NCBI RefSeq assembly: GCF_003334815.1
Contig: NZ_QOWO01000016.1
Length of the DNA stretch: 64,000 nt
DNA from: Escherichia coli
GTDB lineage: Bacteria > Pseudomonadota > Gammaproteobacteria > Enterobacterales > Enterobacteriaceae
Direction: 5' to 3' (one strand)
Made by a program: the position numbers and the translations under genes. Below, in pieces: positions 1 to 18,491 of the stretch (position 1 is its first letter; every line of letters begins with the position of its first letter). The notes below the pieces were generated by a model. It was not told where the DNA came from. It ran no database searches and saw only the letters and a list, made by a program, of their open reading frames with translations.

Positions 1-1
1 G

Positions 2-1060
2 CTTACCGGGATGGGGGCGCGACGTCAGCCACTGATGTGGGCTATCACTACCGCCGGGTACAACATTGAGGGGCCGTGCTACGACAAACGGCGGGAAGTC
101 ATCGAGATGCTCAACGGCTCGGTGCCTAACGATGAACTGTTCGGGATCATCTATACCGTTGATGAAGGTGACGACTGGACCGACCCGCAGGTGCTGGAAA
201 AAGCCAATCCAAATATTGGCGTGTCGGTTTATCGCGAATTTTTGTTAAGTCAGCAGCAGCGTGCGAAAAATAACGCCCGTCTGGCAAACGTCTTTAAAAC
301 AAAACACCTCAATATCTGGGTGTCGGCGCGTTCGGCGTATTTCAACCTGGTGAGCTGGCAGAGCTGCGAGGATAAATCACTGACCCTTGAGCAGTTCGAG
401 GGGCAGCCGTGCATTCTGGCCTTTGACCTGGCGCGTAAGCTGGATATGAACAGCATGGCGCGACTTTATACCCGCGAGATTGACGGTAAAACGCATTACT
501 ACAGTGTGGCCCCGCGTTTCTGGGTACCGTATGACACGGTGTACAGCGTCGAGAAAAATGAAGATCGACGGACAGCCGAACGCTTTCAGAAATGGGTGGA
601 AATGGGCGTTCTGACCGTTACCGATGGTGCGGAGGTGGATTATCGCTACATCCTCGAGGAGGCCAAAGCGGCGAACAAAATCAGCCCGGTCAGTGAGTCA
701 CCCATCGACCCCTTCGGGGCGACCGGGTTGTCACATGACCTTGCTGATGAAGACCTGAACCCCATCACTATCATTCAGAACTACACCAACATGTCCGACC
801 CGATGAAAGAGCTGGAAGCGGCAATTGAATCGGGGCGCTTTCATCATGATGGCAATCCCATCATGACCTGGTGTATCGGCAACGTGGTCGGCAAAACCAT
901 TCCGGGTAACGATGATGTGGTGAAGCCCGTCAAAGAGCAGGCGGAAAACAAAATCGATGGTGCAGTTGCGCTGATTATGGCGGTTGGCAGAGCCATGCTG
1001 TACGAGAAAGAAGACACGCTGTCTGACCACATTGAGTCCTATGGGATCCGCTCGCTTTAA
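2..1060 (+). CDS. phage terminase large subunit, C-terminal part (5' end upstream of window)
   Basis: ORF runs in frame to the window edge; lies directly upstream of portal-protease-capsid genes, the usual packaging-module order; sequence resembles terminase large subunits. Confidence 0.75.
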
Positions 1061-1071
1061 CTGAGGTAATT

Positions 1072-1254
1072 ATGATCATGCTGATTCTCGCGCCTCTGGT
1101 GGGCGTGCTGGGGGCGCTTTTGCTGGCGTATGGTGCCTGGCTGATTTATCCCCCGGCGGGGTTTGTTGTTGCCGGGGCGTTGTGTCTGTTCTGGTCGTGG
1201 CTGGTGGCGCGATATCTCGACCGTACACAGCCGTCTTTCGGCGGAGGTAAATAG
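1072..1254 (+). CDS. small hydrophobic protein (60 aa), unknown function
   Basis: ORF with GAGG-type RBS upstream of ATG; protein almost entirely hydrophobic (two predicted helices); fills the gap between terminase and portal. Confidence 0.4.
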
Positions 1255-2495
1255 TGTTCTTTTCGGGATTATTTCAACGAAAAAGTGACGCACCGATGAC
1301 CACGCCAGCAGAGCTGGCGGAGGCTATCGGGCTATCATATGACACCTATACCGGAAAGCAGATCAGCAGCCAGCGGGCCATGCGACTGACGGCGGTTTTT
1401 TCCTGCGTCAGGGTGCTGGCAGAGTCGGTCGGGATGTTGCCCTGCAATCTGTATCACCTGAACGGCAGCCTGAAACAGAGAGCCACCGGCGAACGTCTGC
1501 ATAAGCTGATCTCCACGCATCCCAATGGCTATATGACGCCGCAGGAGTTCTGGGAGCTGGTGGTCACCTGTCTGTGCCTGAGGGGAAACTTTTACGCCTA
1601 CAAAGTGAAAGCATTTGGCGAAGTGGCTGAACTGCTGCCCGTCGATCCCGGTTGTGTGGTACCGAAGCTTAACAGTAGCTGGGAGCCGGTCTATCAGGTC
1701 ACATTCCCGGACGGCTCCACGGATGTGCTGAGCCAGGAGGATATCTGGCATGTGCGCACGCTGACGCTGGACGGACTGGTGGGGCTGAATCCCGTCGCCT
1801 ATGCCCGCGAGGCAATATCGCTGGCGGCAGCGACTGAAGAGCACGGGGCCAGACTGTTCAGCAATGGTGCGGTGACGTCGGGTGTGTTGCGTACAGAGCA
1901 GACGCTGTCAGATCAGGCTTATGAGCGCCTGAAGAAAGATTTTGAGGAGCGTCACACCGGGCTTGGCAATGCTCACCGCCCGATGATCCTTGAGATGGGG
2001 CTGGACTGGAAGTCGATGGCGCTGAACGCCGAGGACAGCCAGTTCCTGGAAACCCGCAAGTTTCAGCTTGAAGAAATCTGTCGTCTGTTCCGGGTACCGT
2101 TGCACATGGTGCAGAACACCGATCGCGCCACCTTCAACAATATCGAAGAACTGGGGCTCGGATTTATCAACTATTCACTGGTGCCGTATCTGACCCGCAT
2201 CGAACAGCGGATCAACACCGGACTGGTACGAAAAAGTAAGCAGGGCGTTTATTACGCCAAATTTAACGCCGGGGCGTTACTGCGCGGGGATATGAAGTCC
2301 CGTTTTGAAGCCTACGCCACCGGGATTAACTGGGGAATTTACTCTCCCAATGACTGCCGCGACCTGGAAGATATGAATCCGCGTCCCGGTGGGGATGTCT
2401 ATCTCACACCGATGAACATGACCACGAAACCCTCCGATGGCAGTAAAGCCGGTAAGCAGAAGGATAACGCCAATGCAGACGAAACAACGTCTTGA
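1254..2495 (+). CDS. phage portal protein (HK97 family)
   Basis: 413-aa ORF, GTG start preceded by GGAGG; position between terminase and prohead protease; sequence resembles HK97-family portals. Confidence 0.85.
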   Translation: MFFSGLFQRKSDAPMTTPAELAEAIGLSYDTYTGKQISSQRAMRLTAVFSCVRVLAESVGMLPCNLYHLNGSLKQRATGERLHKLISTHPNGYMTPQEFWELVVTCLCLRGNFYAYKVKAFGEVAELLPVDPGCVVPKLNSSWEPVYQVTFPDGSTDVLSQEDIWHVRTLTLDGLVGLNPVAYAREAISLAAATEEHGARLFSNGAVTSGVLRTEQTLSDQAYERLKKDFEERHTGLGNAHRPMILEMGLDWKSMALNAEDSQFLETRKFQLEEICRLFRVPLHMVQNTDRATFNNIEELGLGFINYSLVPYLTRIEQRINTGLVRKSKQGVYYAKFNAGALLRGDMKSRFEAYATGINWGIYSPNDCRDLEDMNPRPGGDVYLTPMNMTTKPSDGSKAGKQKDNANADETTS

Positions 2496-16815: not shown

Positions 16816-17389
16816 CGTCCGGCGCTGTGCTGGTATCTGTTGCCGTCACCGCGTCAATGTAATCCAGCACGGCGTTAAGTCGGGTTGTTTCTGCCGGCGT
16901 CAACTTCCGTCCGGCCTGTAATTTCAACTGAATCAGACTGATGGAAGCCATTGCAGCATCAATCAGATACTGGCGCTGTGCTTCTGCCGCTTCTACTGCG
17001 GCGCTATGCTGTGCCTCAGTATCCGTCACCCATTTCTCACCATCCCATTTATCGTATGGCGTTAATGGGGCGATAGTGGTTGTATTATCAGGGTAATCAC
17101 CCGGAGCTGTGATTTCTTTGGCGTCTCCCGTTTCGGTGCTATAGACAATTTCACCACGATGGTCTGACACATATTCCCATGATTTTAAATCCATAGAACG
17201 GCAGATAGCATAACCCGCCTTATATGTGCCAGGTTCATCCAGACAGGAATATGCAGGGATACCGACACCAATGGCAAGATATTCATTTGAAGTAGAAATA
17301 TATTCCCGAGTTTTACCATCATAGTTATAGACGGTAATATTCCCCGCCTTCGTGGCAATAAGCTCGCTATTTAATACGGCGTTATCCAT
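16787..17389 (-). CDS. tail fibre assembly protein (alternative, inverted orientation)
   Basis: 200-aa ORF on opposite strand inside the invertible segment, convergent with the + strand assembly gene. Confidence 0.8.
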   Translation of the reverse strand: MDNAVLNSELIATKAGNITVYNYDGKTREYISTSNEYLAIGVGIPAYSCLDEPGTYKAGYAICRSMDLKSWEYVSDHRGEIVYSTETGDAKEITAPGDYPDNTTTIAPLTPYDKWDGEKWVTDTEAQHSAAVEAAEAQRQYLIDAAMASISLIQLKLQAGRKLTPAETTRLNAVLDYIDAVTATDTSTAPDVIWPGLPEA

Positions 17390-17870
17390 TATGCAGCCCT
17401 CACGATATAGTTAAATGCAATATTTCGTGGACGGGTTTCACTCCCGCCAGTATTACCGATACTCCCTCGTGAATGAAGTGTCGGTGATGGGATCAGACTC
17501 CCTCCTGTATTTGTGGCATCAAGTCCCCGTCCTTGTGTGTATGTCTTTTTGAAAATCGTAGCCAGTTCCCATTCATCTTTTGTGTCGTAACCATCATTGG
17601 CAACAACAATATGGCGGTGTTTTTCCAGCATCCCTGTCTGAATGCTCAATAAAACACGTCCTGCATCAATACCGCGCCCGTCATCCCAGCCACGAATAAA
17701 CTCACCACGTAAATCAGGCAATTTATTTGTCGGATAAGCCTTTGCCAGTTCCGGGTATTCTTCAGCAGAAAAAGCCGCACCGTTGCATTTCAGCCAGCCT
17801 GTTGGCGGTGTGGCTGAAGGCCATGGAACAGGCACACCAACAGGTAATGCAGAGCCTTCTCCCAAACCAA
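17389..17870 (-). CDS. alternative tail fibre variable C-terminal segment (promoterless; expressed after inversion)
   Basis: minus-strand ORF reading from the right crossover site; translation contains VGLGE at the junction matching LGLGE of the + strand fibre. Confidence 0.7.
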
Positions 17871-17876
17871 CGTTTA
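17856..17876 (-). repeat. gix/hix-like inversion crossover site (right)
   Basis: reverse complement carries TTGGTTTGGGAGAAG, identical to 15976..15990. Confidence 0.6.
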
Positions 17877-17936
17877 TGAAAATGCAGAAATAACGAGCAA
17901 ATGGCATCATTCCTGCTTTTGTCAGGGAGATCTACT

Positions 17937-18491
17937 ATGCTTATTGGCTATGTACGTGTGTCAACAAATGACCAGAACACAGATCTACAACGTAATGCGC
18001 TGAACTGTGCAGGATGCGAGCTGATTTTTGAAGACAAGATAAGCGGTACAAAGTCCGAAAGGCCGGGACTGAAAAAACTGCTCAGGACATTATCGGCAGG
18101 TGACACTCTGGTTGTCTGGAAGCTGGATCGGCTGGGGCGTAGTATGCGGCATCTGGTCATTCTGGTTGAGGAGTTGCGCGAACGTGGCGTTAATTTTCGC
18201 AGCCTGACGGATGCTATTGATACCAGCACACCGATGGGGCGTTTTTTCTTTCATGTGATGGGTGCCCTGGCTGAAATGGAACGAGAACTGATTGTTGAAC
18301 GAACAAAAGCTGGACTGGAAGCTGCTCGCGCACAGGGACGAATTGGGGGACGTCGTCCCAAACTTACACCAGAACAATGGGCGCAGGCCGGGCGATTAAT
18401 TGCATCAGGCGTTCCTCGCCAGAAGGTGGCGATCATCTATGATGTTGGTGTATCGACACTGTATAAGAAGTTTCCGGTCGGAGATAAATGA
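17937..18491 (+). CDS. DNA invertase, serine recombinase of Gin/Pin/Hin family
   Basis: 184 aa starting MLIGYVRVSTNDQ (catalytic Ser motif); GGGAG RBS; C-terminal HTH; adjacent to invertible segment. Confidence 0.9.
   Translation: MLIGYVRVSTNDQNTDLQRNALNCAGCELIFEDKISGTKSERPGLKKLLRTLSAGDTLVVWKLDRLGRSMRHLVILVEELRERGVNFRSLTDAIDTSTPMGRFFFHVMGALAEMERELIVERTKAGLEAARAQGRIGGRRPKLTPEQWAQAGRLIASGVPRQKVAIIYDVGVSTLYKKFPVGDK

Follow-up and report, generated by a model that had tools for sequence, protein, structure and literature searches.

Which phage lineages contributed the virion genes at the left end of this 64,000-nucleotide stretch of Escherichia coli DNA (contig NZ_QOWO01000016.1, in the following "the window"), and do these genes form one module? 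Positions 1-18491 carry a single plus-strand array of about 25 tightly packed genes with overlapping stop and start codons. The left limit is inside the gene for the large terminase subunit, which is cut by the window edge, and the right limit is the stop codon of a DNA invertase gene at 18491. The original prediction for this region had claimed that head genes like those of phage HK97 were joined here to a contractile tail like that of phage Mu. We assign a probability of about 95% to the reading that the region is the late (virion) operon of an SfV-like prophage, a "lambdoid myovirus", and an intact version of what E. coli K-12 carries in deleted form as e14. As judged from the protein families, three lineages appear to be spliced in it: packaging and head genes of the HK97 family at 1-5326, tail genes of the Mu family at about 5804-18491, and, within the fibre switch of the latter part, a fibre tip and chaperone cassette related to the side tail fibre genes of HK97 and lambda.

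The genes were named by scans with PHROG, NCBIfam, and Pfam, which yielded a name for nearly every gene, and every virion protein of HK97 and Mu was compared by reciprocal tblastn with the six frames of the whole 64-kb window. Matches to HK97 proteins were confined to 5-4229 plus stf/tfa at 16790-17874, and matches to Mu proteins to 6370-18479, with gp38, L, N, P, gp45, gp46, gp47, gp48, U, and Gin. A head of Mu type, which would have refuted the original prediction, was looked for in this comparison and not found: the Mu head and packaging proteins gp27 to gp37, including gpF, gpI, and gpT, gave zero matches at E ≤ 1e-3 in the window, and TerL (large terminase subunit), portal, protease, and capsid of HK97 all matched. 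The HK97 tail proteins gp12, gp13, gp16, M, L, K, I, and J gave zero matches in the window. The packaging and head genes were assigned as follows:

1-1060, plus strand: TerL, C-terminal part of about 350 amino acids (aa); phrog_9, E = 4e-117
1072-1254, plus strand: YmfR, small membrane protein of 60 aa, gene located between those for terminase and portal and also annotated as ymfR in K-12 e14 and relatives; phrog_502
1254-2495, plus strand: portal, HK97 family; TIGR01537 portal_HK97, 259.6 bits, cutoff 112; PF04860, E = 1.4e-106
2437-3123, plus strand: prohead serine protease (S78, HK97 family); TIGR01543 proheadase_HK97, 159.1 bits, cutoff 59; PF04586
3138-4343, plus strand: major capsid protein, HK97 family; TIGR01554 major_cap_HK97, 382.1 bits, cutoff 27.5; PF05065, E = 8.6e-78
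4393-4593, plus strand: protein of 66 aa encoded behind the capsid gene, function unknown; phrog_1020, no Pfam or NCBIfam match
4596-4919, plus strand: head-tail adaptor (Ad1, gp6-like); phrog_40, the family of HK97 gp6; PF05135; TIGR01560
4916-5326, plus strand: head closure protein (Hc1, like HK97 gp7 and SPP1 gp16); phrog_25, the family of HK97 gp7; PF05521; TIGR01563

The claim that portal, protease, and capsid are of HK97 type was borne out by these curated NCBIfam models, which scored far above their cutoffs, and by the matches to HK97 itself. TerL was 96% identical at the aa level to SfV TerL and 26-28% identical to HK97 gp2. The portal was 32% identical to HK97 gp3 (E = 1e-53), with no tblastn match to Mu gp29, and no Pfam family of Mu heads was among the Pfam matches of the head genes. 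The protease was 36% identical to HK97 gp4, and His76 and Ser125 of its open reading frame (ORF) aligned with His65 and Ser114 of HK97 gp4, which we take to be the catalytic residues; in the RefSeq homologue, the start corresponds to position 2473. The capsid protein has an N-terminal coiled-coil-like region of about 110 aa at the place where HK97 has its delta domain; PF05065 spans only residues 115-398, and residues from about 3 to 71 match coiled-coil types weakly. Between the protease stop and the capsid start are 14 nucleotides (nt) without an ORF, so that there is no separate scaffold gene at this place, which together with a Pfam capsid domain that begins at residue 115 indicates the HK97 arrangement. 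An alignment of low identity suggests that the capsid protein may be cleaved at the site aligned with K103/S104 of HK97. In a PDB sequence search, the closest solved relative of the capsid protein was that of the Rhodobacter capsulatus gene transfer agent (6TB9/6TBA; E = 2.7e-75 for 6TB9), and HK97 gp5 did not reach the threshold of E ≤ 0.001 in the same search.

On the tail side, 17 genes from the tail terminator to the invertase stand in the Mu order gp37-gp38-L-M-gp41-gp42-N-P-45-46-47-48-S-U-U'-S'-gin. Ten of the seventeen matched Mu directly by BLAST, and none matched an HK97 tail protein. Those from the gp38 homologue to the last baseplate gene are these:

6373-6543, plus strand: DUF2635 protein, Mu gp38 homologue; 40% identical, E = 2e-11; phrog_208 in common with Mu gp38; PF10948
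6527-8023, plus strand: tail sheath (Mu L/gp39-like); 36% identical over 500 aa, E = 2e-84; Pfam sheath domains
8023-8379, plus strand: tail tube (Mu M/gp40-like); phrog_185 in common with Mu M; PF10618, E = 3e-31
8379-8797, plus strand: tail assembly chaperone pair; PF10109 Phage_TAC_7, described as "E, or 41 or 14"
8790-10625, plus strand: tape measure; TIGR01760; PF10145; phrog_28
10644-12014, plus strand: Mu N/gp43-like protein (tube initiator, "DNA circularization protein"); PF07157 DNA_circ_N, E = 6e-33
12011-13090, plus strand: baseplate hub (Mu P/gp44-like); 35% identical over 360 aa, E = 4e-53; GpP-like Pfam domains
13090-13638, plus strand: baseplate spike (like Mu gp45 and P2 V); PF06890 Phage_Mu_Gp45; 31% identical to Mu gp45
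13635-14063, plus strand: baseplate wedge 1 (Mu gp46-like); PF07409 GP46; 40% identical to Mu gp46
14050-15108, plus strand: baseplate wedge 2 (Mu gp47/Baseplate_J); PF04865; 30% identical over 359 aa to Mu gp47
15099-15683, plus strand: baseplate wedge 3 (Mu gp48-like, YmfQ); PF10076 Phage_Mu_Gp48; 28% identical to Mu gp48

In the tblastn comparison, sheath, hub, and wedges were 28-40% identical to Mu L, P, and gp45 to gp48, with E values from 1e-13 to 2e-84. The best solved relative of the sheath in the PDB sequence search was the sheath chain of the Mu cryo-electron microscopy (cryo-EM) entries 9KHY/9KI1/9LJ8 (E = 1e-79); the hub matched the 43-kDa tail protein of MuSo2 at the top (3CDD, E = 3.9e-52) and Mu gp44 (1WRU/9KI1) with E = 1.9e-50. 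The role of N as a tube initiator comes from the cryo-EM paper on Mu (PMC11915804). The chaperone has the Pfam family PF10109 in common with Mu gp41, which was not found at the PHROG level. Its short product ends at 8648 (8379-8648), a slippery heptamer T_TTT_TTC is present at 8630-8636, 10 nt before the stop codon at 8646-8648, and the −1 frame is open to 8797, as read directly from the sequence. A frameshift in this chaperone gene is conserved among tailed phages, and a −1 frameshift at the heptamer is predicted to extend the product to 8797. The order of the genes and the BLAST, PHROG, and Pfam matches agree with the claim that sheath, tube, the gpN- and gpP-like proteins, and the baseplate follow Mu, and the tail as a whole reads as Mu-type and not as HK97-, lambda-, or P2-type.

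The position at which the two lineages meet can be narrowed to the neck. Two genes stand between the head closure gene and the gp38 homologue at 6373, with which direct sequence similarity to Mu begins:

5301-5798, plus strand: 165-aa neck protein in the "Neck1/tail completion" position; phrog_879
5804-6364 (ORF from 5795), plus strand: tail terminator, 186 aa, probable counterpart of Mu gp37; PF23840 Phage_tail_termin

By its families, the head closure gene is the last that is clearly HK97-type. The tail terminator of Mu is gp37 (PMC11915804). Neither PHROG nor tblastn gave a sequence link between the terminator of the window and Mu gp37, and the PDB sequence search with it was empty. An AlphaFold2 model built from 24 homologues had a mean predicted local distance difference test (pLDDT) value of 72.5, and its best PDB fold match was the Mu terminator chain 9khy_1, over the full length, with E = 4.5e-7 and template modeling scores of 0.52-0.55. 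Because other phage terminators were close behind and scored nearly as well, the model gives only moderate support to a terminator of the Mu gp37 type. Since the last HK97-type gene ends at 5326 and the terminator starts at 5804, the joint of the HK97-type and Mu-type lineages is likely in the neck between these two positions. Across the proposed joint, each ORF starts before the stop codon of the preceding one (4916-5326, 5301-5798, 5795-6364).

The 165-aa neck protein itself had no PHROG in common with Mu gp36 or HK97 gp10, even at E ≤ 10. Its AlphaFold2 model (pLDDT 62) had no fold match in a Foldseek comparison with the PDB. Its relatives have no recorded Pfam domains, except for apparent fusions or wrongly called proteins: in some database entries (P0121, 289 aa, PF05521), it forms one protein with the head closure domain, and the phrog_25 profile has a match to it in the C-terminal half of the profile. 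It is three residues shorter at its end than its 168-aa relatives.

At the right end of the array, the fibre gene and the invertase gene enclose an invertible segment, and this is where the third lineage enters:

15687-16367, plus strand: tail fibre of the present orientation, 226 aa; phrog_1396; PF21882 Gp53-like_C
15964-15989, no strand: left 26-bp hix/gix/pix-like crossover site inside the fibre gene; CTCTCGAAAACC TT GGTTTGGGAGAA; inverted repeat, found by pattern search
16372-16815, plus strand: fibre assembly protein of the present orientation (U-like), 147 aa; PF02413 Caudo_TAP; phrog_188; 43% identical to the C terminus of Mu U
16787-17389, minus strand: alternative fibre assembly protein (U'-like, TfaE); PF02413; 86% identical to HK97 Tfa; 89% nt identity to K-12 tfaE
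17389-17868, minus strand: alternative fibre tip (Sv'), promoterless in the present orientation; PF07484 Collar; 58% identical to the C terminus of HK97 Stf
17857-17882, no strand: right 26-bp crossover site, inverted with respect to the left site; TTCTCCCAAACC AA CGTTTATGAAAA
17937-18491, plus strand: serine DNA invertase, Din family (Pin/Gin/Cin/Hin); PF00239 and PF02796; phrog_125

The fibre consists of a constant N-terminal part of about 100 aa and a variable gp53-like tip, with the left crossover site at about codons 93-101. The central dinucleotide is TT in the left and AA in the right site on the plus strand, which means that the two are identical in inverted orientation. The centre AAACC-NN-GGTTT resembles the hix and gix sites of the Hin and Gin systems. 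A search with the 19-nt core that allowed one mismatch found exactly two matches in the window and zero in 100 shuffled sequences. The invertase was 95.7% identical to PinE of K-12 and 77.7% identical to Gin of Mu, and its N terminus (residues 1-22, MLIGYVRVSTNDQ) is the same in Gin and PinE. From the 96% identity to PinE, a Fis-dependent recombinational enhancer is expected in the 5' part of the invertase gene.

Inversion in silico of the 1,895 bp between the central dinucleotides of the two sites (15976-17870) produced an in-frame 256-aa fibre with a collar tip, followed by a Tfa protein of 200 aa. The junction of this flipped state was present in 513 complete E. coli genomes and that of the present state in 24; in strain CH4794, the Sv'-U' cassette is inverted with breakpoints at 15990 and 17856-17875. 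Both orientations exist in nature, as established between strains only. The collar tip and its chaperone, with 58% and 86% identity to Stf and Tfa of HK97, indicate that a third lineage contributed to the module, and the similarity to HK97 Stf starts exactly at the crossover site. The original prediction of an invertible fibre segment arranged as in Mu was correct as to the arrangement; the switch is closest to the P segment of e14 and not to the G segment of Mu, and one of its cassettes is like stf/tfa of HK97.

The crossover site is also the place where the similarity to several phages ends. Homology stops within 1-7 nt of the left site, at 15990/15991 for SfI and SfII and at 15996 for SfV and K-12 e14. 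The 26-bp site may, as a tentative and rather doubtful possibility, be a joint at which fibre tip and chaperone cassettes are exchanged between unrelated phages, with Pin-family invertases of co-resident prophages acting in trans. Ordinary homologous recombination at the conserved protein motif …LGLGE… would also explain the breaks, and the evidence does not separate it from an exchange mediated by invertases. A similar idea on the evolution of fibre genes was reportedly raised in the 1990s. Two further observations bear on such an exchange: the 19-nt site core at 15971-15989 of the window is kept in the fibre genes of SfV (16955-16973) and HK97 (19709-19727), with no invertase annotated in either phage, and the similarity to HK97 Stf begins at the site.

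Comparison with isolated phages places the module in a known group. Window positions 1-15990/15991, from the terminase to the constant fibre part, were 97.4% identical at the nt level to SfI and SfII, and positions 1-15990 were 97.7% identical to vB_EcoM-689R6. SfI, SfII, and SfIV, serotype-converting phages of Shigella flexneri, have the head cassette of the window and also its Mu-type tail genes (PMC3636060, PMC3851460), and SfI and SfII are described as myoviruses; the alignment with SfI and SfII goes as far as the left crossover site, whereas that with SfIV continues with gaps to 17301. SfI is a member of the Myoviridae with cos packaging, and its morphogenesis genes are organised as in SfV, phiP27, ST64B, and e14 (PMC3636060). 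The head proteins of SfI, SfII, SfIV, and SfV all belong to the HK97 family (PMC3851460), and the "SfV-like" phages, lambdoid with a Myoviridae tail, were defined by Bobay et al. as a group of their own (PMC3603311). SfV (U82619) is the type member in which the mosaic of an HK97 head and a Mu tail was described. For this statement, we relied on papers citing Allison et al. (Allison et al. 2002 is in the reference list of the SfI paper, PMC3636060) and on the GenBank annotation of SfV, which notes similarity to Mu gp38, L, N, P, and gp45 to gp48.

SfV is about 96% identical to the window at the nt level at 1-999 and 4595-15996, and its tail proteins are 97-100% identical. Between terminase and adaptor, however, SfV possesses a different cassette of the HK97 family: the portal is 27% and the capsid protein 25% identical at the aa level, and the protease gave no BLAST match. 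This different head cassette of SfV was also remarked upon in the SfIV paper (PMC3851460). Conversely, the cassette at 1042-4469 with YmfR, portal, protease, and capsid is 97% identical at the nt level to that of the siphophage vB_EcoM-606R7 and 96% identical to that of phi467. The genes downstream of it in 606R7 specify a non-contractile tail of the lambda/HK97 type, with major tail subunit, G/GT-type chaperones, H, M, K, and I, which means that one head set is used on two types of tails. The comparisons with SfI and SfII, SfV, and 606R7 show recent swaps of exchangeable modules. Shorter shared parts were seen in other phages: phiP27 and several Klebsiella phages have only terminase to capsid in common with the window (5-4332, 75-82%), and ST64B-like Salmonella phages have 1-8409 in common (84-86%).

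HK97, 606R7, and phi467 have the same families of portal, S78 protease, capsid protein with a built-in scaffold, and gp6- and gp7-like connector proteins as the window, but their tails are long, non-contractile, and of the lambda type. Mu has the same order from gp37 to gin, with 28-40% identity for gp38, L, P, and gp45 to gp48 and 78% for the invertase, and its G segment works by the same logic as the switch of the window, a constant part and two variable tips, a chaperone for each tip, and an invertase gene alongside. The fibre is shorter here (226 or 256 aa, compared to 504 aa of Mu S), as is the invertible segment (1.9 kb, compared to about 3 kb in Mu). Upstream of the terminator and gp38 genes, nothing in the window is Mu-like, and the connector contains extra parts of HK97 type. 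In SfV, the fibre tip and its chaperone are fixed, O-antigen gtr genes and int/xis come after them, and there is no invertase, and SfI was likewise reported with gtr and int/xis (PMC3636060); the window has an invertible segment with two tips, the Pin invertase, and different cargo instead. The Shigella phages integrate at tRNA-thrW (PMC3636060), whereas the prophage of the window adjoins prfC.

The relationship to e14 is that of a complete module to a deleted one. The genes of e14 are ymfN-ymfR-beeE-jayE-ymfQ-stfP-tfaP-tfaE-stfE-pinE. K-12 e14 has 98% nt identity to window positions 1-1661 and 96.5% to 14321-15996, followed by the tfaE/pinE region, with the same layout of the P segment, the same crossover site, and an invertase of the 95.7% identity given above. 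Positions 1662-14320 of the window (12.66 kb), from the C terminus of the portal to the N terminus of gp47, are not present in e14. This indicates that e14 is the module with 12.66 kb deleted from mid-portal to mid-gp47, which explains the fragments beeE and jayE, the latter being the truncated counterpart of wedge 2. Further differences are another StfP tip, mcrA in the place of an 84-aa ORF and an LPO_1073-family gene, and the location of e14 in icd and not next to prfC.

Such modules are common. At least 80% of the 18.5-kb module was present in 724 of 5,426 complete E. coli genomes. The original prediction that this mosaic is known from enterobacterial temperate phages holds; the "small group" that it assumed does not agree with this number. 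In the closest genome, that of strain GPEC620-622, window positions 1-20241 aligned in one piece with 98.2% identity. There, the module is inside a lambdoid prophage of about 40 kb between yjjG and prfC. The integrase of this prophage is of the tyrosine type, its repressor (ymfK) of the LexA type, and its small terminase subunit of the P27 family; ymfT, ymfL, Q, lysis genes, and a gene for an HNH endonuclease are also present, and a transposase gene is not. A 20-bp direct repeat, TTTGCCATTATTTCTCACCC, flanks this prophage (at 25621-25640 of L004 and at about 19110-19130 of L007), one copy within prfC, close to its 5' end, and one beside yjjG and the integrase gene. It is likely the core of the attachment (att) site, which would mean that the prophage integrated into the beginning of the prfC gene. 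Window positions 19901-22400, where the 5' region of prfC is 95% identical to that of GPEC620-622, did not contain the exact 20-mer, and a tRNA scan for an attachment site found no tRNA genes in the window.

Three other explanations need to be considered. The tail might be P2-like rather than Mu-like: the spike passes the model TIGR01644 phage_P2_V with a score of 52.2 above the cutoff of 46.75, and Baseplate_J (PF04865) and Phage_TAC_7 are common to P2 and Mu. In P2, however, the baseplate and fibre genes V-W-J-I-H-G precede FI-FII-E-T-U-D. The order here is that of Mu, with sheath, tube, chaperone, tape measure, N, P, baseplate, and fibre, the domains DNA_circ_N, GpP-like, Phage_Mu_Gp45, GP46, Phage_Mu_Gp48, and DUF2635 are present, and the identities to Mu gp38, L, P, and gp45 to gp48 as well as the PDB matches to Mu structures point in the same direction, which makes a P2-like tail highly improbable. 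A uniform module of a transposable, Mu-like phage, the head of which would be HK97-like only by a shared capsid fold, has next to no probability. The capsid of Mu also has the HK97 fold (PMC11915804), and similarity at the fold level would not discriminate between the two. The discrimination was made at the level of sequence families, at which the equivalogs portal_HK97, proheadase_HK97, and major_cap_HK97 were all passed and Mu gp27 to gp37 found no match, and the closest complete prophage, that of GPEC620-622, is lambdoid by its integrase, repressor, Q, and HNH/P27-family terminase genes.

The region might also consist of two unrelated prophage remnants side by side, or be a cryptic wreck like e14, and not be one working module. 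K-12 e14 is indeed a deleted, cryptic version of the element, the right end of the prophage contains a 102-bp repeat and a duplicated dinI, which are traces of tandem or recombined prophage ends, and the window does not include the left half of the prophage. On the other hand, the same contiguous arrangement is present with 97% identity in the isolated phages SfI, SfII, and SfIV (PMC3636060, PMC3851460). All ORFs are intact, with lengths as in these phages except for the three residues at the end of the neck protein, start and stop codons overlap across the proposed joint, and the 12.66 kb missing from e14 are present. An assembly of remnants is very unlikely for these reasons.

An intact late operon of an SfV-like prophage, with a head of HK97 type and a tail of Mu type, nevertheless has to be held against several observations. 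The head proteins of HK97 itself are only distant relatives, with 25-36% identity, the capsid proteins being about 25% identical over about 170 aa. In a MAFFT alignment of three sequences with about 25% identity, the crosslink residues K169, N356, and E363 of HK97 all fell into gaps; these residues of the chainmail are specific for HK97 and not required for membership in the family. On the tail side, tube, chaperone, tape measure, terminator, and fibre had no BLAST-level match to Mu in the tblastn comparison, including the tape measure with Mu gp42, and were assigned by profile, fold, or position. The N-like protein is 42% identical to Mu N over about 90 N-terminal aa only. The 165-aa neck protein had no Pfam or NCBIfam match and is placed in neither lineage. 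The connector of Mu is composed of portal, adaptor, and terminator only (PMC11915804), whereas here a gp6-like adaptor, a gp7-like closure protein, and the extra neck protein precede the terminator.

For an SfV-like virion with these components, the protein families would predict the following pathway; the homologies, the order of the genes, the breakpoints, and the crossover sites were read from the DNA, and the assembly steps, the protease cleavage, and the frameshift are what we infer from the families. The terminase would package the DNA through the HK97-family portal, which may nucleate head assembly. The capsid protein would co-assemble by means of its own N-terminal, delta-like scaffold region, with the proposed consequence that a separate scaffold gene is not needed, and the S78 serine protease would remove this region. 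The gp6-like adaptor and the gp7-like closure protein may then seal the head, and the neck protein and the Mu gp37-like terminator may dock it onto a contractile tail of the Mu plan. This tail would be built from the tape measure, the frameshifted chaperone pair, the N-like tube initiator, the P-like hub, the gp45 spike, the gp46, gp47, and gp48 wedges, the tube, and the sheath. By flipping the 1.9-kb segment, the Pin-type invertase would join the constant fibre base of about 100 aa to one or the other tip, for each of which a separate assembly chaperone is encoded, and switch the receptor specificity in this way.

To the right of the invertase gene, the prophage continues with a slot of low GC content (38%) at 18492-20110, which contains genes for an 84-aa predicted membrane protein (18850-19104) and a 313-aa protein of the LPO_1073/Vpar_1526 family (19101-20042). 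The genes at 18850-20042 had no PADLOC or Pfam match, and no literature was found under the family name. The same slot carries mcrA in K-12 e14 and genes for an "AAA family ATPase", an "SDH family Clp fold serine proteinase", or a GIY-YIG protein in other strains. Since the contents differ among strains, the slot looks like a variable hotspot of the type with anti-phage cargo.

The right end of the prophage (18489-22322) looks like two prophage ends that recombined. The 102-bp repeat is located at 18489-18590 and 21774-21875, with about 93% similarity of the copies as deduced via matches in the relatives L004 and L005, and the dinI-like genes are a partial one at 20111-20241 and a full one at 21881-22129, both on the minus strand. 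Window positions 20111-22400 are 99.7% identical to strain 510016, which possesses a different prophage with reverse transcriptase/SLATT cargo at the same site upstream of prfC. A helix-turn-helix protein of 119 aa and an ImmA/IrrE metallopeptidase of 173 aa, encoded as a pair at 20446-21335, resemble the regulators CapH and CapP of cyclic-oligonucleotide-based anti-phage signaling systems (PADLOC capH, E = 3.6e-10; capP, E = 4.9e-11), with no obvious effector operon beside it.

The remaining part of the window, 22322-64000, is ordinary E. coli core chromosome. Its portion for which relatives were compared extends from prfC, osmY, yjjU/V/W/I, and deoCABD over lplA, serB, radA, nadR, ettA, sltY, and trpR to gpmB. 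Further to the right, the thr leader at 54761-54880 is followed by ORFs of 820, 310, and 428 aa, which are probably thrABC. Rfam found host features only in the window, including five naRNA4 elements and one ES036 small RNA, and scans for promoters and terminators gave counts no higher than chance.

To place these results, SfV-like phages have been known as head/tail mosaics for about twenty years, the element is an ordinary one, and RefSeq annotates the genes correctly in close relatives, so that the discovery value of the mosaic is small. A suitable annotation label would be "SfV-like/e14-type prophage late operon". The value is in a picture that can be checked, in which the joint of the two lineages has a place in the neck, one head cassette is carried on two types of tails, e14 of K-12 is accounted for by a deletion, and the fibre switch is intact and occurs in both states among strains.

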